Assembly (NCBI GenBank): GCA_005878515.1
Contig: VBLZ01000097.1
Coordinates: 7,634 to 71,633, forward strand
DNA length: 64,000 bases
Direction: 5' to 3'
Source of the DNA: Methanobacteriota archaeon
Lineage (GTDB): Archaea > Thermoplasmatota > Thermoplasmata > RBG-16-68-12
The position numbers were made by a program, and so were the translations under genes. Positions within the stretch are counted from its first letter, which is position 1. Each line of letters starts with the position of its first letter. The notes under the pieces are model-generated. The model saw only the letters and a list, made by a program, of their open reading frames with translations. It had not been told where the DNA came from and did not search any database. Below, piece after piece: positions 19,454 to 47,307 of the stretch.

Positions 19454-19987
19454 TCACGCTGCGCGCTTCGCAATCATCTGCGCGAGCTTCGCGAACGCGA
19501 CCTCGACGTTCTCGCCGGTCTTCGCGGACGTGAACAAGAACGGGGCCTCGTGCGCCTCCGCCGCGCTCTGCACGTCGGCCTTCGTAATCGCCATCTGGTT
19601 CTTCAGATCCGCCTTGTTCGCCAGGAATTCGATCGGGACGTTCCCGGTGACCTTTATCACGGCGGCGACCCAATCCTCGAGGTCATCGAGCGTCTCCTTC
19701 CGCGTCACATCGCACACCGCGAGGACGCCCTGGGCCCCGTGGAAGTACGCTTCTTTGAGCAATTCGCGGAAGCCTTTCTCGCCCATGATATCCCAGATCG
19801 TCATGTCGACGTCCATGCCGCCGTTCGCGCCGTCGACCTTGATCTCTTTCTTCGAGACCTTCGCGCCGAGCGTGGAGATGTATCGGTCGTCGAACTGGTC
19901 CTGGATGAACCTCCGGATCAGGCACGTCTTGCCGACTGCGCCCTCTCCGACGAGGCAGACCTTGACTTTCATCTTTTGGCGGTCCAT
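19454..19987 (-). CDS. Ras/Rab-like small GTPase (paralog 1)
   Basis: G1 motif GEGAVGKT, switch-I Thr (STLGAK), G3 WDIMGEKG, G4 NKAD and G5 SAK are all present. The protein is 177 aa. Confidence 0.9.
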   Translation of the reverse strand: MDRQKMKVKVCLVGEGAVGKTCLIRRFIQDQFDDRYISTLGAKVSKKEIKVDGANGGMDVDMTIWDIMGEKGFRELLKEAYFHGAQGVLAVCDVTRKETLDDLEDWVAAVIKVTGNVPIEFLANKADLKNQMAITKADVQSAAEAHEAPFLFTSAKTGENVEVAFAKLAQMIAKRAA

Positions 19988-20027
19988 CAGAATCCCTAGA
20001 GCCGGTGCGTCGCTCGCACACGTCTCA

Positions 20028-20038
20028 GGTTATAAAGG
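20028..20038 (-). promoter_or_regulatory. TATA-like element upstream of GTPase paralog 1
   Basis: The plus-strand sequence ggttataaagg (minus strand cctttataacc) lies about 45 nt upstream of the ATG at 19987. Confidence 0.35.
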
Positions 20039-20102
20039 CGTTGCCCATCGGTTATCTATCGAGATAATGGCGGGGGCTCGGAGGGCTTGCGCCTCGATGG
20101 CG

Positions 20103-20642
20103 TCACTCGTTTCCGCGGTTCCCGATCGCATCGGCGAGGGCGCGGAACGCCTCGGCCACGCCGGCCCCGGTCTTCGCCGACGCGAGGAACTGAGGTGCGC
20201 TGTGGATCGACCCCATCCGGCCGAGTTCTTCCTGGCTCACGACGAGCCGCTCGGTCAGGTCCATCTTGTTCCCGAGGAACACCATCGGGACGTTGCCGAC
20301 CTGCTTTCGGATCATCTGGACCCAGTTGTTGAGATCGTAAAACGTATCCTTCCGCGTGAGGTCGCAGACCGCGATCACGCCTTGGGAGCCTTCGAAGTAC
20401 GCGTCGCGGAGTAAGGCCCGGAATCCCTTTTCGCCCATGATGTCCCAGACCATCATGTCGAGCGTCGCGGGGGCGCCCTTCCAAACGACATCGACCGACT
20501 TCTTCGTGACCTTCGTGCCGACCGTGGCGATGTACCGGTCGTCGAACTGGTCTTGAACGAACCGCTTGATGAGAGAGGTCTTGCCGACCGCGACATCCCC
20601 GACGAGGCAGACCTTGGCCTTGAGATGCTTCTGGCCAGCCAT
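20103..20642 (-). CDS. Ras/Rab-like small GTPase (paralog 2)
   Basis: Motifs GDVAVGKT / WDIMGEKG / GNKMD / SAK are present. The start was chosen at MAGQKHLKAKVCLVGD by alignment with the two other paralogs. Confidence 0.9.
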   Translation of the reverse strand: MAGQKHLKAKVCLVGDVAVGKTSLIKRFVQDQFDDRYIATVGTKVTKKSVDVVWKGAPATLDMMVWDIMGEKGFRALLRDAYFEGSQGVIAVCDLTRKDTFYDLNNWVQMIRKQVGNVPMVFLGNKMDLTERLVVSQEELGRMGSIHSAPQFLASAKTGAGVAEAFRALADAIGNRGNE

Positions 20643-20722
20643 CGTGGACGTCGCCATCACGGGCCACCCATCGAGCGCGGTCTTATGTACCGTGCAGACG
20701 CGAGTATCGCCCCTGATAATTC

Positions 20723-21286
20723 TTACTCTTCAGGGAGCACTTTTCGCGCGTAACGCTCCTTCGCGACCCGCTCGGCAAGGGACTGGAACGCATTCTCGAC
20801 GTTGACGCCGGCCTTCGCCGACGTGAAGTGGAACGGACTGTCGTAGGCGCGGGCGGCCTGGACCATGTCGTCCTCGCTGATCTGAATCTGGTCCTTCAAG
20901 TCGATCTTGTTGCCGAGGAACTCGATCGGAATCTTGCCCGTGACACTGTAGACGCCCTCGATCCAGTCGTCGAGGTCTTCGAGGGTCTTCTTCCGGGTGA
21001 CGTCGCAGACCGCAAGGATCCCGCGGGCGCCGTAGAAGTACGCCTCCTTGAGCAGCTCGCGGAAGCCTTTCTGGCCCATGATATCCCAGATTGTCATGTC
21101 GATCTTCAATTCGCCCGAGCCGTCCGGCGACGAGGAGGTGAGCTCCTTCTTTGAGACCTTCGTGCCGAGCGTCTGGATGTACTTATCATCGAAGTTCTCC
21201 AGCACGAATCGGCGGATGAGAGAGGTCTTGCCAACTGCAGCCTCACCAACGAGGCAAACTTTCACTTTCATCCGCTTGACTTCCAT
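20723..21286 (-). CDS. Ras/Rab-like small GTPase (paralog 3)
   Basis: Motifs GEAAVGKT / WDIMGQKG / GNKID / SAK are present. The protein is 187 aa. Confidence 0.9.
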   Translation of the reverse strand: MEVKRMKVKVCLVGEAAVGKTSLIRRFVLENFDDKYIQTLGTKVSKKELTSSSPDGSGELKIDMTIWDIMGQKGFRELLKEAYFYGARGILAVCDVTRKKTLEDLDDWIEGVYSVTGKIPIEFLGNKIDLKDQIQISEDDMVQAARAYDSPFHFTSAKAGVNVENAFQSLAERVAKERYARKVLPEE

Positions 21287-22883: not shown

Positions 22884-23828
22884 ATGGCGGATCCCGAGGA
22901 CAAGAAGGGCACCGCGGGATCCGCGGACGCCAAGCCGGCCCCGAAACGCCGCATACGGGCTCCGAAGGCCGCGAAACCGACGAAGGCCGCGAAGGCGGCG
23001 AGGGCCACTCAAGAGAAGGAGACGAAACGAGAGGCGCCCGCGGTCAAGCCCGGTCAAGTTCACGTCTACTCCCTCGACGGCGACATCATCAAGACGGTCG
23101 AACTCCCGACGGTCTTCCGATCCGATGTCCGCCTCGATCTGATTCGGCGGGCGGTGACCGCATTCCAAGCGAACCGTCGACAACCCTACGGGCCCTCGCC
23201 GATGGCGGGGATGCATCACTCCGTCCGCTGGTCGGGGAAGGGGAAAGGCGTGTCGCGGGTCCCGCGTCTCCGCGGCACGATGACCGGGGCGCAAGCGCCC
23301 GGGACGGTCGGTGGCCGCCGAGCGCATCCCCCTCGCCCGGACAAGGTGTGGGTCAAGAAGGTCAACGAACAGGAACGGCGGCTGGCTCGCAACGCCGCGA
23401 TCGCGGCCGTGAAGGATCCTCGGATGGTCGCATCGCGCGGCCACCGATTCCCGGAGGACATCACGCTCCCCGTGGTGATCGAGGACGGAATCGAGACGCT
23501 CACGCCGGATAGCGGCGCGACCCGCGAGGGCCTGAAGATCCTCAATCACCTCGGCCTCCTACCCGACGTGGAACGCGCGAAAGACGGACGACACATCCGC
23601 GCCGGCCGCGGGAAGATGCGCGGGCGGCGGTACCGCCAGCCCCGGAGCGTCCTCGTGGTCGTGAAAGAAGCCGGAAACGTCCGGCGGCTCCTGGGAAATC
23701 TTCCCGGCGTCGAGGTCGTGAACCCCGCGGCCTTGAACGCGGAGGTCCTCGCGCCGGGAGGCGACCCCGGACGACTCACGGTTTTCAGCGAAGGGGCGCT
23801 CGAGATCCTCAGGAGCTGGCCGACATGA
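22884..23828 (+). CDS. rpl4: Ribosomal protein L4 (L1e) with a roughly 55-aa Lys/Ala-rich N-terminal extension
   Basis: The core …VHVYSLDGDIIKTVELPTVF… onward is L4. The N-terminal MADPEDKKGTAGSADAKPAPKRRIRAPKAAKPTKAAKAARATQEKETKREAPAVKPG has no alternative start downstream of it. Confidence 0.9.
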   Translation: MADPEDKKGTAGSADAKPAPKRRIRAPKAAKPTKAAKAARATQEKETKREAPAVKPGQVHVYSLDGDIIKTVELPTVFRSDVRLDLIRRAVTAFQANRRQPYGPSPMAGMHHSVRWSGKGKGVSRVPRLRGTMTGAQAPGTVGGRRAHPPRPDKVWVKKVNEQERRLARNAAIAAVKDPRMVASRGHRFPEDITLPVVIEDGIETLTPDSGATREGLKILNHLGLLPDVERAKDGRHIRAGRGKMRGRRYRQPRSVLVVVKEAGNVRRLLGNLPGVEVVNPAALNAEVLAPGGDPGRLTVFSEGALEILRSWPT

Positions 23829-24106
23829 AGCCCCACGAGATCCTCATCCATCCGTACGTCACAGAGAAGACGCTCAACATGCTGCAGGGCACGCCGGCGC
23901 AGAACCTGAAGGACGGCAATCGCCTCGAATTCCTCGTGCGGCGAGAAGCGACGCGCTCAGAGGTCAAGAAGGCTTTCGAAGAGCTCTTCGAGGTGAAGGT
24001 CGCGAAGGTCAACACGTTCGTCCGGAAGGACGGGAAGCATGCGATCATCAAGTTGAAGGCAGGCTTCTCCGCGGAGGAGATCGGCATGCGGATCGGGGTG
24101 TTTTGA
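23825..24106 (+). CDS. rpl23: Ribosomal protein L23
   Basis: A 93-aa protein with MKPHEILIHPYVTEKTLNMLQ… It overlaps the L4 stop by 4 nt. Confidence 0.95.
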   Translation: MKPHEILIHPYVTEKTLNMLQGTPAQNLKDGNRLEFLVRREATRSEVKKAFEELFEVKVAKVNTFVRKDGKHAIIKLKAGFSAEEIGMRIGVF

Positions 24107-24939
24107 TGGGGAAGAATCTTCGTTCCCAGCGACGCGGTCGCGGCACCTCGCCGACCTACCGCTCCCCGAGCCATCGTCATCCGGGCCTCGTCACCTATCC
24201 GCGCTTCCGCGGTGCGGGTGTGGTCACTGATATCTTCCAGGCGCCCGGTCACACGGCGCCCCTCGCGCGCGTTCGATTCGGCAGTCAAGAGGTCCTCATG
24301 ATTGCCTGCGACGGACTCTCGATTGGTCAACCGGTCACCCACGGCATGCCGAACGTGGACCGCGGGAACACGTTGCCCCTCCGCGAGATTCCGGAAGGCA
24401 CGTTGGTCTACAACATCGAAGCGATGCCCGGGGACGGAGGGAAGTTCGTGCGGGCTGCCGGAACGCAGGCCGTCGTCGTCAGCCAAGCCGAACGCACGGT
24501 GGTCCAGCTTCCCTCGGGACAGTTCCACACGTTCCACCCGGATTGCCGCGCGACGATCGGCGCGGTCGCGGGTGCCGGCCGCGGTGACAAGCCCTTCACG
24601 AAAGCGGGCAAGAAGTGGTTCTCGTACCGCTCCTTCAGCAAGCCCGCATTCAACGTGCGCGGCGTTGCGATGAACCCCGTGGACCATCCGCACGGCGGCG
24701 GATCCCACCAGCACGTCGGGAAGCCGTCGACCGTGGGGTATGACGCTCCTCCCGGCCGGAAGGTCGGCCGGAACGTGCGCGGCGTTGCGATGAACCCCGT
24801 GGACCATCCGCACGGCGGCGGATCCCACCAGCACGTCGGGAAGCCGTCGACCGTGGGGTATGACGCTCCTCCCGGCCGGAAGGTCGGCCGGATGTCCCCG
24901 AAGCCGAAGCGGCTGAAGCTGAAACGACGGAGGTCCTGA
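24103..24939 (+). CDS. rpl2: Ribosomal protein L2 carrying an internal 40-aa tandem duplication
   Basis: The L2 signature …NVRGVAMNPVDHPHGGGSHQHVGKPSTVGYDAPPGRKVGR occurs twice in succession. The protein is 278 aa against an expected length of about 238. Confidence 0.9.
   Translation: MMGKNLRSQRRGRGTSPTYRSPSHRHPGLVTYPRFRGAGVVTDIFQAPGHTAPLARVRFGSQEVLMIACDGLSIGQPVTHGMPNVDRGNTLPLREIPEGTLVYNIEAMPGDGGKFVRAAGTQAVVVSQAERTVVQLPSGQFHTFHPDCRATIGAVAGAGRGDKPFTKAGKKWFSYRSFSKPAFNVRGVAMNPVDHPHGGGSHQHVGKPSTVGYDAPPGRKVGRNVRGVAMNPVDHPHGGGSHQHVGKPSTVGYDAPPGRKVGRMSPKPKRLKLKRRRS
24652..24891 (+). repeat. Perfect 2 x 120-bp tandem direct repeat inside rpl2
   Basis: Positions 24652-24771 and 24772-24891 are identical base for base (aacgtgcgcggcgttgcgatgaaccccgtggaccatccgcacggcggcggatcccaccagcacgtcgggaagccgtcgaccgtggggtatgacgctcctcccggccggaaggtcggccgg). 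The repeat is in frame. Confidence 0.95.
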
Positions 24940-24941
24940 CG

Positions 24942-25409
24942 ATGGCGAGGAAGCAGATGGGCGGCCTGGCCAAGGCCGCGCGACGGAAGCTGCGGAAGCG
25001 CGCGGGCCTGGTCGAGACCCGGCGCAAGAAGGAGTTCACGTACCGTGGGTACACGCTCGATGAGATGAAGGCGATGACGCTCGAAGAGATCATCGAGCTC
25101 CTGCCCGCCCGACCGCGGCGGTCGTTCATGCGCGGGATTGACGAGGAACGCTTCACGTTCGTCGAGAAGGTCCGCGCGAACGGGACCGAGGAGGCCGTGC
25201 GCACACACTGCCGCGACGTCCCGATCCTCCCGGACTTCATCGGGAAGAAGGTCGCGGTCCACAACGGGAAGGAGTTCGTGACGGTCGAGATCAAGGCGGA
25301 GATGATCGGGCATTACATCGGCGAGTTCGCCATGACGCGGAAGCCGGTCACGCACAGCGGACCCGGCGTCGGGGCGACGCGATCGTCGAAGTTCATGCCG
25401 CTGAAATGA
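24942..25409 (+). CDS. rps19: Ribosomal protein S19
   Basis: Translation reads …PILPDFIGKKVAVHNGKEFVTVEIKAEMIGHYIGEFAMTRKPVTHSGPG…. Confidence 0.95.
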   Translation: MARKQMGGLAKAARRKLRKRAGLVETRRKKEFTYRGYTLDEMKAMTLEEIIELLPARPRRSFMRGIDEERFTFVEKVRANGTEEAVRTHCRDVPILPDFIGKKVAVHNGKEFVTVEIKAEMIGHYIGEFAMTRKPVTHSGPGVGATRSSKFMPLK

Positions 25410-25873: not shown

Positions 25874-26758
25874 ATGCCGGCGGAAGCGAAGGTCAACCGG
25901 AAGGACAAGCGGATCATCGTCGAGAACGTCCGCCGCGTGCTGTTGAAGGAATACCTGATGAACGAGACGCGCCGCGCCGGCTTCGGCGGCCTCGATATCC
26001 AACGGACGCCGATGGGGACTCGGGTCACGCTCTTGGCCGAGCGCCCGGGCCTGGTGATCGGCCGAAAAGGCGGCGCGATCAAGGCCCTCACGGAGGCGGT
26101 CGAACAACGGTTCCGGTTCGACAACCCGCAGATCGAAGTCCAGGAGGTTGCGAGCCCCGCGCTGAATGCGCAGATCATGGCCGAGAAGCTGGCCAACGCC
26201 CTCGAACGAGGCTGGCACTTCCGGCGCGCGGGTCACTCGACCGTGCGGCGGATCATGGAGGCCGGCGCGAAGGGGTGCCTCGTCGTGATCGCCGGCAAGC
26301 TCACCGGCCAGCGGCATCGGACGGAGAAGTTCAAGGCGGGCCACATCAAGTACTGCGGAGAACCGCGGAACCTCTGGATGGACCTCGGGTTCGCGTCCGC
26401 GAAGTTGAAACCCGGGATCATCGGCGTCACGGTCGAGATCATGGATCCGCGGGCAAAGCTTCCCGACGAGGTGGAGATCAAGAAGCCGACGGCCGAATAC
26501 CTCGCCGCCGCAGCCGCCGCAGCGCTCGAACCGGTTGCGGCACCGGAGCCGTTGGTCGAGGTCGCGGCCGTGGCCGGACCCGGGAGCGAAGAGTCCGTCG
26601 AAGAGCCCGAACCGCTCATCGTCCCGGAGGAGCCGGATCCGGCGAAGAAGGTCAAGAAGAGCAAAGTCGCGACGAAGCGGTTGAAGAAGGTCGCCAAACA
26701 GGTGAGCGAACTCGGCGTCGACGTCGAGGTGGGGACGGAAGGAGGCGACGAGACGTAA
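25874..26758 (+). CDS. rps3: Ribosomal protein S3 with an Ala/Glu/Lys-rich C-terminal extension
   Basis: The KH-domain core is …[15 protein letters not shown]… The C-terminus carries about 80 extra residues (…[16 protein letters not shown]…[16 protein letters not shown]…). Confidence 0.9.
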
Positions 26759-27024
26759 TGGCATTGCTCCGGACGAAGGAGATCCGCGCAATGGACGCGG
26801 AGACGATCGCGAAGAAGCTCACGGAACTTCGGGACGAGCTGATGCACGAACGAGGCGTCGCCGCCATGGGTGGCGCACCCCCGAACCCCGGCAAGATCCG
26901 CGCACTCCGCAAGAACATCGCCCGAATCCTGACGATCATGCGCGAGGAGGAACTGGCGGGAGGCGCGGGCACCCCGGGGAAAGCCCCGGCTGCGAAACCG
27001 GCGCCTGCGGGAGACGAGACGTGA
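26758..27024 (+). CDS. rpl29: Ribosomal protein L29
   Basis: [32 protein letters not shown]… The start overlaps the S3 stop (TAATG). There is a short Gly/Ala/Pro/Lys C-terminal tail. Confidence 0.9.
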
Positions 27025-27284: not shown

Positions 27285-27683
27285 ATGGCGGAAAAGAAAG
27301 CGCAGAAGAAACCGGTCGCCCCGGCCGCATCCGCCAAGCCGGTCCGCTCCGTCGCGCGCGACGTTGGGATCGACGTCCCGATCCCGACGGCGCCTTGCGC
27401 GGATCCGAAGTGTCCATTCCACGGCCGACTCCCCGTTCGCGGGCAGATGCTCGAAGGGGTCGTCGTGTCGACCCGGATGCAGAACACGGTCGTCATCGAG
27501 CGGCAGTATCTTCGGTATATCCGGAAGTACCAGCGGTACGAGAAGCGGACGCACCGCATGAACGTGCACGCGCCGCCGTGCCTCGGACTCCAGATCGGCC
27601 ATCGCGTCCTCGCGATGGAATGCCGGCCGCTCGGAAAGACGGTTCATTTCGTCGCGATTCACAACCAGGGGGTCGCCGGTTGA
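27285..27683 (+). CDS. rps17: Ribosomal protein S17 with a short Lys/Ala-rich N-terminal extension
   Basis: Translation reads …[47 protein letters not shown]…. Confidence 0.9.
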
Positions 27684-28454: not shown

Positions 28455-29165
28455 GTGAAGAAGCATCTGAAGCGGTTGCCGGCGCCCCGGAGCTGGACGA
28501 TCCCGAGGAAGACGGATTTCTGGGTCGTGAAGCCTTCGCCCGGTCCTCACCCGATCGATACGAGCGTCCCGCTCGGCCTGATCCTCCGGGACATGCTGAA
28601 GGTCTGCGCGAACGCCCGGGAGGCCCGGCACATCCTGAACGGCCGCGGCGTCCTCGTGGACGGCCGCGCGGTCACGGATCCGAAATTCCCGGTCGGCCTC
28701 ATGGACGTCCTCTCGTTCGCGGCGACGAAGGCCCATTACCGGATGCTCGTCGACACGCGCGGCCGGATGGCCCTCGTGCCGATCGAGGAGGGCGATGCGA
28801 AGTGGAAGCTGTGCCGCGTCGAGGACAAGACGACGGTCCGCCGGGGCAAGACGCAGGTGAACCTCCATGACGGGCGGAACGTCCTCCTCGAAAAGGACGC
28901 GTACAAGACCGGGGCCACGCTGAAGCTCCACGTCCCGGAGCAGAAGGTCGTCGAGCACTACGAGCTCGGGAAAGGCGCGCCGGTCCTGGTGACGGGCGGC
29001 CAACACGTCGGCGAGATTGCGCACGTCCTCGAGATCCAGCGGACGCGCAACCCGCGTGCGAACATCGTGACCTTCACGGAAGGATTCTCGACGGACGCCG
29101 GCAAGGTGTTCGTCGTCGGCAAGGAGGCCCCGTCGATCCGAACGCCGGAGGTCTCGGCAATCTAG
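28455..29165 (+). CDS. rps4e: Ribosomal protein S4e
   Basis: Translation reads [32 protein letters not shown]…. Confidence 0.95.
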
Positions 29166-42377: not shown

Positions 42378-43007
42378 GTGAAGGTCGTTGTCTTCGGCGC
42401 GACGGGGGAGACCGGCCGTCTCCTCACGGAACGAACCCTGCGGGCGGGCCACACGGTCACCGCCTTCGTGCGCGATCCGGCCCGGATGCTCATCGTGCAC
42501 GAACGGTTGCGCGTGATCCGAGGCGACGTCCTCGACCCTCCTTCGGTTGAGCGAGTGATTCCAGGCCACGATGCGGTCCTCTCGGCTCTGGGGAGCACGG
42601 CCCGCAATCCGGCACCGGTCCTTTCCGAGGGCGTTCAGCACATCCTCGATGCGATGGAACGGTCCCGCGTCCGGCGGATCGTGGCCCTCTCGGCGGCCGG
42701 CGCGCTGGGGGAGTCGGCCGGATTCGCAATCGGGAATGCGGGCCTGCGAATCTTCCGAATGTGGCTGCCGCAGGTCTACCGAGAGCATCGCAAGATGCTC
42801 GACGAACTTCGGCGGCGCGAACTCGAATGGATCGCGGTGCGCGCCGTCCTGTTGACGAACGGCGCAGCGAAGGGTCGCTACCGCATTGCGATCGAGGGAA
42901 TTCCGCGGTGGGGCTTTCGGATCTCTCGCGCCGATGTCGCCGACTTCATGATCCGCCAACTCACGACCGATGAGTTCGTCCGCAAGATGCCCGCGACGGC
43001 GTATTGA
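42378..43007 (+). CDS. NAD(P)-binding NmrA/SDR-like oxidoreductase (atypical SDR)
   Basis: VKVVVFGATGETGRLL is a Rossmann GXXGXXG motif. The protein is 209 aa and starts at GTG. Confidence 0.75.
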   Translation: MKVVVFGATGETGRLLTERTLRAGHTVTAFVRDPARMLIVHERLRVIRGDVLDPPSVERVIPGHDAVLSALGSTARNPAPVLSEGVQHILDAMERSRVRRIVALSAAGALGESAGFAIGNAGLRIFRMWLPQVYREHRKMLDELRRRELEWIAVRAVLLTNGAAKGRYRIAIEGIPRWGFRISRADVADFMIRQLTTDEFVRKMPATAY

Positions 43008-43143
43008 ATCCGTTAGGATTCGCCAGGTAGGTGCACGGGCACCAACGACCGCATGCTTTTATACGGCCACCCAGATGAGTCGACCGCTTCCCGAGGCGAT
43101 GAAGAAGCCTTGGGTGGCCCGAATCCCCGGGAGCGGGGCTGCG

Positions 43144-46100
43144 ATGATCAAGCAGGCGGAGAAGACGTATGCTCCACTTGAGGTGGAGCGACAGGTCCAG
43201 GAATTCTGGGACCGCGCGAAGGTCTACCGGAAGACCGTCGCCGCGCGGGAGAAAGGCGAGGATTTCTTTTTCGGCGACGGCCCGCCGTACACAACCGGAT
43301 CGATTCACCTCGGAAACGTCCTGAACAAGACGATCAAGGATCTCGTCGTCCGCTATCATCGGATGCGCGGCTACCACGTCCGGGACCAGCCGGGCTACGA
43401 CATGCACGGCCTCCCGATCGAGGTCCAGGTCGAGAAGACCCTCGGGATCACGAACAAGAAGGAGATCGAAGAGCTCGGCATCGAGAAGTTCGTGAACACC
43501 TGCCGGACGTTCGCGACGGACCTCCTGCAGACGATGACGAAACAGTTCCAGTCGCTCGGCATCTGGCTCGATTGGGACCGCCCGTACATGACGATCCGCA
43601 ACGAATTCATCGAGGCGGCGTGGTGGACGCTGAAACGCGCCCACGAACACGACTGGATCTACGAGGCGCTCCGGTCCATCCAGTGGTGTTCCCGATGCGA
43701 GACGGCCCTCGCGGACGCCGAAGTCGAGTACTCCGACGAAACGGATCCGTCGATTTACGTCAAGTTCCGCCTCGCCGGCAAGCCGGACGAATCCCTGCTG
43801 ATCTGGACCACGACCCCGTGGACCCTTCCCGCCAATCTCGCGATCGCGGCGCATCCCGATTTCCGGTACGCGAAGGTGAAAATTCCACATGGCAAGAAGC
43901 CCGAGTACGTCTGGCTCATGGAGAGCGCGGTGCCCGACGTCATGGCCCGCGGCGGGGTGACGAAATACTCCGTCGTCGAGACGAGGAAAGGGAGCGACCT
44001 CGTCGGGCTCGCATACCTCCACCCACTCCGGACGAAGCTCCCCTACCAGAAGTCAGCGAAGGGCGAGTGGGTCCACAAGCTCGTCTCCTCGGACACGGTC
44101 GCCGCCGAGTACACGGGGCTCGTCCATTCGGCCCCGGGGCACGGACCGGAGGACTTCGAGCTCGGTCAGAGGCTCGGCCTTCCCGCCTTTTCGCCGGTCG
44201 ACGCGGGAGGCCGTTTCACCGCGGACGCCGGCGCCTACGCGGGCCAGAAGGTGAGGGAGGCGAATCCGGGGATCATCGCGGACCTGCGGGCGGCCCGCGC
44301 TCTCTTCGCGGACGAGACGATCCTCCATGCATACGGCCATTGTTGGCGATGCAAGACCCCGATCTTGTTCCGCGCGACGGTCCAATGGTTCCTCAAGGTG
44401 ACGGACTTCAAACCGAAGATGGTCGAGGAGGTCGGGCGGGTCAGATGGTTCCCGGACTGGGCCGGATCGGCGCGCCAACTCGATTGGACGAGCAACCTGC
44501 GGGACTGGTGCATCTCCCGGCAGCGGTACTGGGGCATCCCCCTCCCGATCTGGAGGTGCGCGAAGTGCAATCACTGGACGGTCGTCGGATCGGCCGAATC
44601 CCTTCGAGGTGCGAGCGGCTACAAGGAAGGAATGGACCTTCACCGGCCCGGCATCGACCGGATCGCGCTCCCATGCGAGAAGTGCGACGGCGAGATGCGG
44701 CGGGTCCCCGACACGGTCGACGTGTGGTTCGACAGCGGCGTCTCGAGCTGGGCGAGCCTCGGCTACCCGGCTCGCGACGACGAGTTCCGCCGCTGGTGGC
44801 CTCAGGACTGGATCGTCGAAGGGCCGGACCAGACGCGGGGCTGGTTCAACTCCCAACTCGCGGCAGGGGTCGTGGCGTTCGACCGGGCTCCGTACGATCA
44901 GGTGCTGATGCACGGTTGGGTGAACGGTCCGGACGGACGGCAAATGCACAAGTCCCTCGGGAACGTCATCGAGCCCGAGACGGTCGTCGACAAGTTCGGG
45001 GTCGATCCGCTCCGATTCTATGTGATCGCCGTGAACGCGCCTTGGGACGACATCACGTTCCAGGAGGAGGGCGTCCGGAACGCGCAGCGGACCTTGAACA
45101 TCCTGTGGAACGTCCTGCGGTTCGCGACGACCTACATGGTCTTGGACCGGTTCGATCCGTTCGCGGCGGACCTCTCCTCGACCGAAGGCCACCTCCGGCC
45201 CGAGGACCGTTGGCTCCTCTCGCGGCTCGAGGGTCTGAAGAAGACCGTGGACCTCGAGATGCGTTCATACAACCTGCACCGCGCGGCCCGCGCGGTCGAG
45301 GCGTTCATCCTCGATGACCTCTCGCGGTGGTACGTGAAGCTGGTCCGCGGGCGGACCTGGACGGAGACCGACAACGGGGACAAGCTCGCCGCGTACCGCG
45401 TGCTCTTCGAAGCGCTGAGTACCCTTGCGATCCTCCTCGCCCCCGTCGCGCCCCACATCGCAGAGGCCATGTATCAGCGCCTCGATGGACGGAAGCTCAG
45501 CGTGCACATGCTCGATTGGCCCGACGTCCGAGCGCAATGGCTTCGGCCCGAGCTTGAGCGGTCTATGTCGATCGTGCAAGAAGAGGTTGAAGTCGTCTCG
45601 AATCAACGACAGAAGGGAGGGCGGAAGCTCCGTTGGCCGCTGAAGCTGATCGCGGTCCGCAGCGCCACACCGGAAGCCGCGGAGGCGTTTGCCGCACTGC
45701 GGAGTATCTTCCTGGACCAGGTGAATGCGAAGGAACTCGTGATCTTGGAACCCGCCGACGAGTTTCCGGGCACCGTCGTCGTCGCGAAGCCCGACGCCGC
45801 GGCGATCGGCAAGGCGTACAAAGCTCTGGCACCCAAGATTGTGAAACTGCTCGGGACCCGGGCCCCGGGCGAGCTGCAAAAGGCGTTCGAGCGCGGTTCG
45901 TACACGCTCCATGCGGACGGGCAGACGTTCGAGATCGAACCGACGATGGTGCGCTTCGAGAAAGCGCTCCCCCCCGAGGTCGTCCGGGTGGAGACGCCTC
46001 ATGGTGAGATCTACCTCGACCTTCGCGTGACGCCGGAGCTCCAAGCCGAAGCGTACGCTCGCGAGATCGTCCGCCGAATCCAGCAGATGCGGAAAGACCT

Positions 46101-47307
46101 CGACCTGGACATCGACGACTTCATCGCCACGGTCATCAAGACGAACAAAGAATTCGCAGCGACCCTCGAAGCACAGCAGGCCTTCATCGCCCGCGAGACT
46201 CGATCTCGCAGCTTGACGTTCACCGACAAGGCCGTCGCCTCCGAACATGTCGTCGAATGGAAGGACGTCGACGGTCATGGCGTCACGATCGGGGTCACAC
46301 CGCTCCATCTCTCCGAATCGATTCGCGAATTCACCCGGATCCCCGGCCTCACGATGGCGAAGGCGATGGCCCTTTTCGACGCGGGCTACAAGAGCCTCGC
46401 GGCGCTTCGCTCCGCGACGAAACAGGAGTTGCTGGCCGTCGACGGCCTTGACGCAGGAGACGTCGACCGGATCACCGAATTCCTCGCCGTCCCAGAAAAG
46501 AAGGACGCCGTCTGCCCGACCTGCCAGGCGTCCGTCGCGGCCGACGCGCGGCGCTGTCCTCGATGTGGAGAGCCGATGGCGTTGGAGGCCACGCCCTGCC
46601 CCCGATGCAAGTCGGCTATTCCTCCCGGCGCGGACGCATGTCCTGTTTGCGGCTTCGCATTAATCGGCCAGGCCGCTCCAGGGACGCCCTCGCGGACGCC
46701 GTGCGTCGCGTGCGGAGAGCTGATTCTCGCGGGTTCTTCCGAGTGCCCCTCGTGCGGTGCGCCGCAGAAGCGACCGGTCCCGCTGGTTTCGAGTCCAACC
46801 GGTGAGGACGAGGCGCCGGCGCTGCTGAAAGACTCCTCCTCGTACCTCGTACGAGAGACCACGCCCGAGGAGGCGTATCGCCTATTCCTCATCGCACATA
46901 ACACGGGGAAGAAGGGCATGATCATCACGCGACTTTTCCCGCAGAAGGTCCGAGAGCGCTTCGGGCTGAAAGATCTGCCGATCGTCTGGTTGAGCAACGT
47001 GGGCAAGGAGGACTCGGTCCGACCGAAAGACCTCGAAAAGTTATCCTTGGCCGCGGAGCAATTCCTCTCCCGCGAGAAAGGCGTGGTCCTTCTCGACGCG
47101 ATCGAATATCTAGTGACGAACAATAATTTCCTGACGGTGCTGCGTCTTGTGCAATCGATTCGCGATCAGGTGGCCGTCAACAACGGGGTGCTGTTGCTTT
47201 CCGTCAACCCGTCGACCCTCGACGCCCACCAGATGACGCTCCTCGAACGCGAAGTGGATCAAGTGGTCAACGTGTCCGGCGGGCCGACGGGTTCCACTTC
47301 GGGATGA
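43144..47307 (+). CDS. ileS: Isoleucyl-tRNA synthetase fused to a roughly 330-aa C-terminal extension (HhH + multiple zinc ribbons + DUF835-like domain)
   Basis: The HIGH motif (GSIHLGNVLNK) and KMSKS motif (MHKSLGNV) define the archaeal-type IleRS body. The frame then continues without a stop through GLTMAKAMALFDAGYKSLAALRSATKQELLAVDGLD (helix-hairpin-helix-like), six CxxC pairs (CPTCQ…CPRCGE…CPRCKS…CPVCGF…CVACGE…CPSCGA) and a terminal domain …GMIITRLFP…VVLLDAIEYLVTNNNFLTVLRLVQSIRDQVA… that resembles DUF835. The start was chosen at MIKQAEKTYAPLEVERQVQEFWD. Confidence 0.85.
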   Translation: MIKQAEKTYAPLEVERQVQEFWDRAKVYRKTVAAREKGEDFFFGDGPPYTTGSIHLGNVLNKTIKDLVVRYHRMRGYHVRDQPGYDMHGLPIEVQVEKTLGITNKKEIEELGIEKFVNTCRTFATDLLQTMTKQFQSLGIWLDWDRPYMTIRNEFIEAAWWTLKRAHEHDWIYEALRSIQWCSRCETALADAEVEYSDETDPSIYVKFRLAGKPDESLLIWTTTPWTLPANLAIAAHPDFRYAKVKIPHGKKPEYVWLMESAVPDVMARGGVTKYSVVETRKGSDLVGLAYLHPLRTKLPYQKSAKGEWVHKLVSSDTVAAEYTGLVHSAPGHGPEDFELGQRLGLPAFSPVDAGGRFTADAGAYAGQKVREANPGIIADLRAARALFADETILHAYGHCWRCKTPILFRATVQWFLKVTDFKPKMVEEVGRVRWFPDWAGSARQLDWTSNLRDWCISRQRYWGIPLPIWRCAKCNHWTVVGSAESLRGASGYKEGMDLHRPGIDRIALPCEKCDGEMRRVPDTVDVWFDSGVSSWASLGYPARDDEFRRWWPQDWIVEGPDQTRGWFNSQLAAGVVAFDRAPYDQVLMHGWVNGPDGRQMHKSLGNVIEPETVVDKFGVDPLRFYVIAVNAPWDDITFQEEGVRNAQRTLNILWNVLRFATTYMVLDRFDPFAADLSSTEGHLRPEDRWLLSRLEGLKKTVDLEMRSYNLHRAARAVEAFILDDLSRWYVKLVRGRTWTETDNGDKLAAYRVLFEALSTLAILLAPVAPHIAEAMYQRLDGRKLSVHMLDWPDVRAQWLRPELERSMSIVQEEVEVVSNQRQKGGRKLRWPLKLIAVRSATPEAAEAFAALRSIFLDQVNAKELVILEPADEFPGTVVVAKPDAAAIGKAYKALAPKIVKLLGTRAPGELQKAFERGSYTLHADGQTFEIEPTMVRFEKALPPEVVRVETPHGEIYLDLRVTPELQAEAYAREIVRRIQQMRKDLDLDIDDFIATVIKTNKEFAATLEAQQAFIARETRSRSLTFTDKAVASEHVVEWKDVDGHGVTIGVTPLHLSESIREFTRIPGLTMAKAMALFDAGYKSLAALRSATKQELLAVDGLDAGDVDRITEFLAVPEKKDAVCPTCQASVAADARRCPRCGEPMALEATPCPRCKSAIPPGADACPVCGFALIGQAAPGTPSRTPCVACGELILAGSSECPSCGAPQKRPVPLVSSPTGEDEAPALLKDSSSYLVRETTPEEAYRLFLIAHNTGKKGMIITRLFPQKVRERFGLKDLPIVWLSNVGKEDSVRPKDLEKLSLAAEQFLSREKGVVLLDAIEYLVTNNNFLTVLRLVQSIRDQVAVNNGVLLLSVNPSTLDAHQMTLLEREVDQVVNVSGGPTGSTSG

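Follow-up and report, generated by a model that had tools for sequence, protein, structure and literature searches.

The rpl2 gene, which encodes the 50S ribosomal protein L2 (uL2), lies at positions 24106..24939 on the forward strand of the 64-kb stretch of DNA analysed here (the window). As assembled, it consists of 277 codons followed by a stop codon, as delimited from the open reading frame list, Pfam and homologues. The gene is flanked upstream by rpl23 (uL23; 23825..24106, +) and downstream by rps19 (uS19; 24942..25409, +), the exact proteins of which serve as markers of the population, and the gene order L3-L4-L23-L2-S19-L22-S3-L29 is that of the archaeal ribosomal protein operon. Translation of rpl2 starts at the ATG at 24106 (MGKNL...), which shares one base with the TGA of rpl23; in particular, M1, G2 and K3 are invariant or nearly so in 109 homologues. 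A reading of the sequence alone had assigned the gene to ribosomal protein L2, and this assignment is borne out by its match to the Pfam family Ribosomal_L2_C (PF03947; 178.5 bits against a cut-off of 33.7) and by its position between L23 and S19. Owing to a duplication within the gene, the PF03947 match falls in two stretches. Archaeal uL2 chains in the PDB match the protein with E values of 1e-58 to 1e-67, and its amino acid sequence is 99% identical to that of homologue P0001. With one copy of the duplicated unit removed, the product shortens from 277 to 237 amino acids and equals P0121 (TLZ77150.1), which is named '50S ribosomal protein L2'. Residues H234, P235, H236, G237, G238, G239, H241 and H243 are invariant in the 109 sequences, and the HPHGGG motif occurs twice in the protein encoded by the window. 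The protein exceeds the typical length of archaeal uL2 (about 230-240 amino acids): full-length entries among its 120 best homologues, drawn from 5.8 billion clusters, measure 230-237 amino acids, and none of the 120 is longer than 237 except P0006, which has an N-terminal extension. Judged from its sequence, the gene departs from an ordinary archaeal uL2 in length and in no other tested respect.

The additional length is due to two abutting 120-nt units. Copy 1 spans 24652..24771 (+; codons 183-222) and encodes NVRGVAMNPVDHPHGGGSHQHVGKPSTVGYDAPPGRKVGR, whereas copy 2, which is the same as copy 1, spans 24772..24891 (+; codons 223-262); the peptide of each copy includes HPHGGG. The earlier observation that two identical 120-bp copies are present was reproduced by direct reading, by string comparison, in which window 24652-24771 equals window 24772-24891 base for base, and by Tandem Repeats Finder, which reports 24652-24892 with a period of 120, 2.0 copies, 100% matches, no indels and a score of 482. 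A repeat finder also recovers the pair, as family D3. A perfect repeat of 120 nt cannot have arisen by chance. The duplication creates a novel junction, GGTCGGCCGG followed directly by AACGTGCGCG, at 24771/24772. The unit can be phased in two ways, 1 nt apart, as the base 3' of copy 2 (A, 24892) is also the first base of the unit; the microhomology between the end points is likewise limited to 1 nt (A). Such a short microhomology is atypical for slippage. Both copies are in frame within the open reading frame at 24103-24939 (+), each 120-nt unit corresponding to 40 codons, and the remainder of the gene is intact. The earlier count of 40 added codons is correct; the accompanying lengths (from 238 to 278 amino acids) were taken from an upstream TTG and become 237 and 277 when the true ATG start is used. 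Moreover, the duplicated peptide was said to include the invariant HPHGGG, and the motif is indeed unvarying in the 109 homologues.

Across the 64-kb window, the 120-nt pair is the sole perfect tandem repeat with a period of at least 24. A search of the window for further anomalies or perfect tandem duplications that might signal faulty assembly revealed none, and Ns are absent both from the junction of the copies and from the rest of the window. In the single-copy gene region, shared k-mers able to make a graph loop were sought, and none of 12 nt or longer was found.

Two other features of the window deserve mention in their own right. Just upstream of the operon, at 19454-21286 (-), the repeat families D1 and D2 correspond to three tandem paralogues of about 180 amino acids that are 65-80% identical at the nucleotide level. 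In L021, a near-identical contig, these paralogues are annotated with the small-GTPase Pfam families Arf, Ras and Roc, and the gene trio is kept in several related contigs. Downstream, at 42970-47307 (+), lies a 1445-aa open reading frame for a class I aminoacyl-tRNA synthetase that is IleRS-like (tRNA-synt_1, Anticodon_1, DUF5915) and carries HhH_5, a double zinc ribbon and a DUF835 domain in its C-terminal part. It represents an unusual fusion or else two genes joined by read-through, and this exact 1445-aa product is not on record.

The location of the duplicated unit within uL2 bears on what a second copy would mean for the protein. The uL2 protein is composed of a globular domain, a bridge and an internal extension domain; the tip of the extension bears the conserved histidine residues and sits within helix 93 of the 23S rRNA, in its major groove, adjoining the P site. 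In the sequence-only reading, the duplicated loop was described as contacting the catalytic centre, which is too strong a statement for a tip that lies in the helix 93 groove next to the P site. In an AlphaFold2 model based on the 109-sequence alignment, residues 31-150 form two globular domains, with average pLDDT values of 86-97 per 10-residue block. Residues 160-250, which span nearly all of both copies, have pLDDT values of 30-45 and are without regular structure; both copies are modelled as disordered, and the model does not indicate which of them would take the native place. The low confidence at 160-250, taken together with the description of the uL2 extension, suggests that the duplicated unit corresponds roughly to the rRNA-embedded extension and not to a folded domain. 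According to the model, the folded domains of uL2 would therefore be left untouched by the duplication. This arrangement is compatible with a genuine and very recent in-frame duplication, produced by unequal exchange or a replication template switch that involved next to no homology, and occurring in a single sample or a minority of the cells; we consider this explanation the main rival to an artefact, possible but rather unlikely. In such a case, the assembler would have written the variant into the consensus, and the extra 40 residues would form a second non-globular extension, with the rRNA groove able to take up one copy only; the variant would probably be neutral to deleterious and transient. 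The preserved frame, the intact remainder of rpl2 and the predicted placement of the unit wholly in the non-globular part of uL2 (pLDDT 30-45 at 160-250) speak for this explanation. However, an insertion of 40 residues into a universally conserved segment that is embedded in rRNA would be expected to be costly (PMC2330241), and the copies, which have not diverged at all, bear no trace of having persisted.

In public collections, MAGs and metagenome contigs of soil Thermoplasmata come closest to the window. Among them are the 'Methanobacteriota archaeon' genomes EA_2, EA_3, EA_4 and EA_11 (14_0903 scaffolds), JGI 33000263xx contigs and ENA CRIT18-1_SAMN089028xx scaffolds; the EA MAGs originate from a grassland study at the Angelo Coast Range Reserve and its Thermoplasmata follow-up (PMC6784897, PMC9038741). 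Each of 13 contigs that stem from different assemblies of the window's own soil Thermoplasmata population contains one copy of the unit. Eleven of these were compared at the DNA level, namely contigs of JGI metagenomes 3300026301, 3300026313, 3300026326, 3300026332 and 3300026334, two ENA MEGAHIT k141 assemblies, three ENA CRIT18-1_SAMN089028xx scaffolds and the NCBI MAG GCA_005878965.1; the other two, JGI contigs 3300026333 and 3300026532, were compared by protein and encode the exact single-copy product. In all 11 DNA comparisons, the flanks are 98.1-100% identical to those of the window and the unit is 100% identical and present once. Each contig aligns to the window in two blocks whose overlap is exactly the unit, and across 4-19 kb the duplication is the sole structural difference, except that two strain variants have a 3-nt indel at another place. 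The single-copy protein P0121 (TLZ77150.1) is represented by 21 contigs in the cluster table and by 38 blocks of a public contig index, 23 of whose contigs were inspected. In that index, the exact S19 protein is found in 81 blocks and the exact L23 protein in 78, and wherever the gene between them is shown, it is a 237-aa L2 or that gene with a start called further downstream. That 13 other assemblies of the population and all relatives compared lack the second copy weighs against a genuine recent duplication.

Sequence variation around the unit is very low. Between the window and contigs L021, L023, L028 and L030, no substitutions are found from the last upstream difference, or from the start of the respective contig (23140-23998), to position 26533. 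The junction shows no change from one strain to another, a comparison that has no power given that the surrounding 2.5-3.4 kb are identical among strains. Further downstream, the window carries alleles at 26534, 26537, 26722, 26728, 26737, 26802, 27290 and 28604 that differ from those of most near-identical contigs: at 26534-26802 (the 3' part of rps3) the difference is seen in nine of the 11 contigs, at 27290 in eight and at 28604 in 10. All eight window alleles together occur in no single other contig, and the pattern resembles the ordinary mosaicism of strains that a consensus of a population contains.

The 11 near-identical contigs also reveal where assemblies of this population tend to break. 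Five of them (L026, L028, L030, L029 and L024) start upstream of the unit, at distances that are, in increasing order, 78, 315, 654, 956 and 1186 nt; these starts correspond to window positions of about 23466-24574, mostly inside rpl2. The region just upstream of the unit is a recurrent assembly break point for the population.

Wider searches extend this picture beyond the population. The more distant relatives compared, with 79-96% nucleotide identity over the gene, are all single copy and lack the junction. No second copy of the unit was found in any of 40 related loci, among which the junction was searched for in the first 20, copies were counted in 37 and perfect tandem repeats were scanned in all 40. 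A degenerate pattern that fits the junction as well as the normal right boundary retrieved 19 loci from genome and metagenome contigs, all of them single copy, in a scan that was not exhaustive, as it missed contigs that contain the pattern, such as Ga0209801_1000986 (L021). At the protein level, a search of 1.84 billion representative proteins yielded no duplication of this region among its 150 best hits. Hits of that search that align in two stretches are insertions, fragments or a permuted fragment. Among about 15 billion proteins, neither the exact 277-aa product nor the exact 278-aa product is on record, which is weak evidence given that the source of the window may lie outside these collections. 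In relatives of 94% identity, L2 and L4 seemed to be interrupted (L2 is called at 173 amino acids); in L032, both genes translate without an internal stop, so that the short calls are a matter of start-codon choice. Comparison of rpl2 among related genomes had been put forward as a check when the duplication was first noticed, and the comparison gives a single copy in every other population assembly and in every relative. Thus, at the level of sequence, the duplication is private to the window. The same result disfavours the view of a 'remarkable tolerated insertion'. The three causes originally offered, namely a recent event, an artefact or heterogeneity, were the correct ones to consider, and the single-copy relatives narrow them towards an artefact or a non-representative variant.

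Among database entries outside the window, PDB 11he chain L8, a eukaryotic '60S ribosomal protein L8' of 345 amino acids, contains about 80 C-terminal residues twice, with the HPFGGG region among them. The second copy, at residues 258-336, corresponds to the region around 163-241, which makes this chain a candidate duplication in a database uL2 sequence.

A second tandem duplication was encountered in the same operon of a relative. Contig L017 (WNGP01005747.1), from a relative that is about 93% identical, carries a perfect 28-nt tandem duplication (CGCTCGATGAGATGAAGGCCATGACGCT twice) in rps19 at L017:10315-10372; the 28-nt unit is present in single copy in the window and in L021. The duplication breaks the frame, splitting S19 into open reading frames of 49 and 114 amino acids, and is flanked by a microhomology of 7-8 nt. 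It cannot be the working state of the essential rps19 gene. The L017 case can be read in two ways with respect to the window. On the one hand, its microhomology is the signature of true slippage, which speaks for a genuine event. On the other hand, it demonstrates that non-working tandem duplications reach contigs of this operon, which argues for an artefact in rpl2. Under antibiotic selection, rplV, rpmH and rplP have acquired real in-frame tandem duplications, 4-12 residues long (PMC10871548), which lends some plausibility to a genuine event in the window. Nevertheless, the 1-nt microhomology at the end points of the rpl2 duplication falls short of the direct repeat of several nucleotides that accompanies slippage.

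On the evidence described above, the second copy is likely to be a local artefact of assembly, joining or curation that lies outside the genome as carried by the population. A stretch common to two sequence ends, or to a patch and its flank, may have been written twice on joining; alternatively, a spurious loop may have been traversed. The true rpl2 would then be the ordinary single-copy 237-aa gene found in all other assemblies of the population. This explanation is favoured because the duplication is private to one assembly and absent from 13 others and from all relatives, because rpl2 is essential and strongly constrained (around the unit, there are no substitutions relative to L021, L023, L028 and L030), and because the microhomology of only 1 nt lacks the usual signature of slippage. 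Furthermore, since five contigs break just upstream of the unit, joins inside rpl2 are plausible. Metagenome assemblies are known to contain duplicate sequence at scaffold joins, wrong repeat numbers and artificial concatenations of identical sequence (PMC7111523). The pipeline used at the site from which the EA MAGs come employed iterative k values including 120 (IDBA-UD), or 121 for one MEGAHIT sample, as well as automated correction of scaffold errors (PMC6784897). The coincidence of these k values with the length of the unit supports an artefact only circumstantially, as the pipeline belongs to the study of the near-identical MAGs and may not be that of the window.

Several observations weigh against an artefact. 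The length of the unit is a multiple of three, which would be expected of an artefact in one case out of three and is required of a viable variant. The junction is free of Ns, whereas the best documented join artefact leaves Ns, and this too speaks for a real event. In addition, a contig produced by de Bruijn assembly would need reads bearing the junction, which speaks for a real variant; a purely contig-level artefact would require chimeric reads. An artefact would have to stem from scaffolding, patching, merging or curation. Finally, the rest of the 64-kb window is without anomaly. On balance, the duplication is real as sequence and most probably not real as biology; an assembly error or a rare variant is the likeliest account, rather than a feature of the ribosome of this organism. 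The privacy of the duplication and the existence of an otherwise identical single-copy allele are direct observations, whereas we infer that the cause is technical and not biological. If the second copy is indeed an artefact, a universal marker gene on which phylogenies and genome-quality scores rely contains a false insertion of 40 residues in a deposited or derived sequence. Perfect tandem duplications that are private to one assembly provide a cheap flag for local errors.

A functional role of the duplication has also to be considered. Yeast uL2 with the substitution H215Y, which maps to the tip of this same extension, confers resistance to sparsomycin and slight resistance to anisomycin (PMC2330241), and azithromycin selects for in-frame duplications in rplV and rpmH (PMC10871548). 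By analogy with these resistance duplications in uL22 and bL34, soil antibiotics directed against the peptidyl-transferase centre might drive an adaptive duplication of the P-site-proximal extension of uL2 that became fixed in a strain, and the habitat of the organism is soil. This proposal is highly improbable: the duplication is not recurrent, with no other strain, sample or relative possessing it; its 40 residues are three to ten times the length of the 4-12-residue resistance duplications (PMC10871548); and it shows no divergence or other mark of persistence. It is also very unlikely, by our estimate, that a viable strain of soil Thermoplasmata builds ribosomes with a doubled P-site-proximal uL2 extension, including the HPHGGG tip in helix 93. 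If such ribosomes did exist, one copy would be expected to occupy the native groove and the other to be looped out or to form a basic tail of 40 residues, and selection by antibiotics acting on the peptidyl-transferase centre would be possible. A real duplication would be larger than any other natural insertion known in the part of uL2 that is embedded in rRNA, its extension, and would then offer a natural test of the tolerance of this ancient segment. None of the evidence presented here makes a real duplication the likelier explanation.

Compared with known systems, the protein encoded by the window resembles archaeal uL2 (L2P; chains in 9sra, 4v6u, 6skf and 1s72) in sequence, operon position and invariant motifs. 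It differs in having 40 more residues, which constitute a second copy of the extension segment that is absent from the top-ranked homologues listed. The duplications described in Neisseria rplV (uL22), rpmH (bL34) and rplP are likewise in-frame tandem duplications in ribosomal protein genes; however, they are bacterial, comprise 4-12 residues and recur in independent lineages under a known selection, whereas the duplication in the window comprises 40 residues, affects uL2 and was found once (PMC10871548). The rps19 duplication in L017 shares with that of the window the operon, the lineage, the perfect tandem arrangement and the restriction to one assembled contig, but it is out of frame with 7-8 nt of microhomology, while the rpl2 duplication is in frame with 1 nt. 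With respect to the local assembly errors described by Chen et al. 2020, the window deviates in that no Ns separate the copies; in common with them, it displays identical and adjacent copies, occurrence in one assembly only and a location in a region prone to assembly breaks (PMC7111523).
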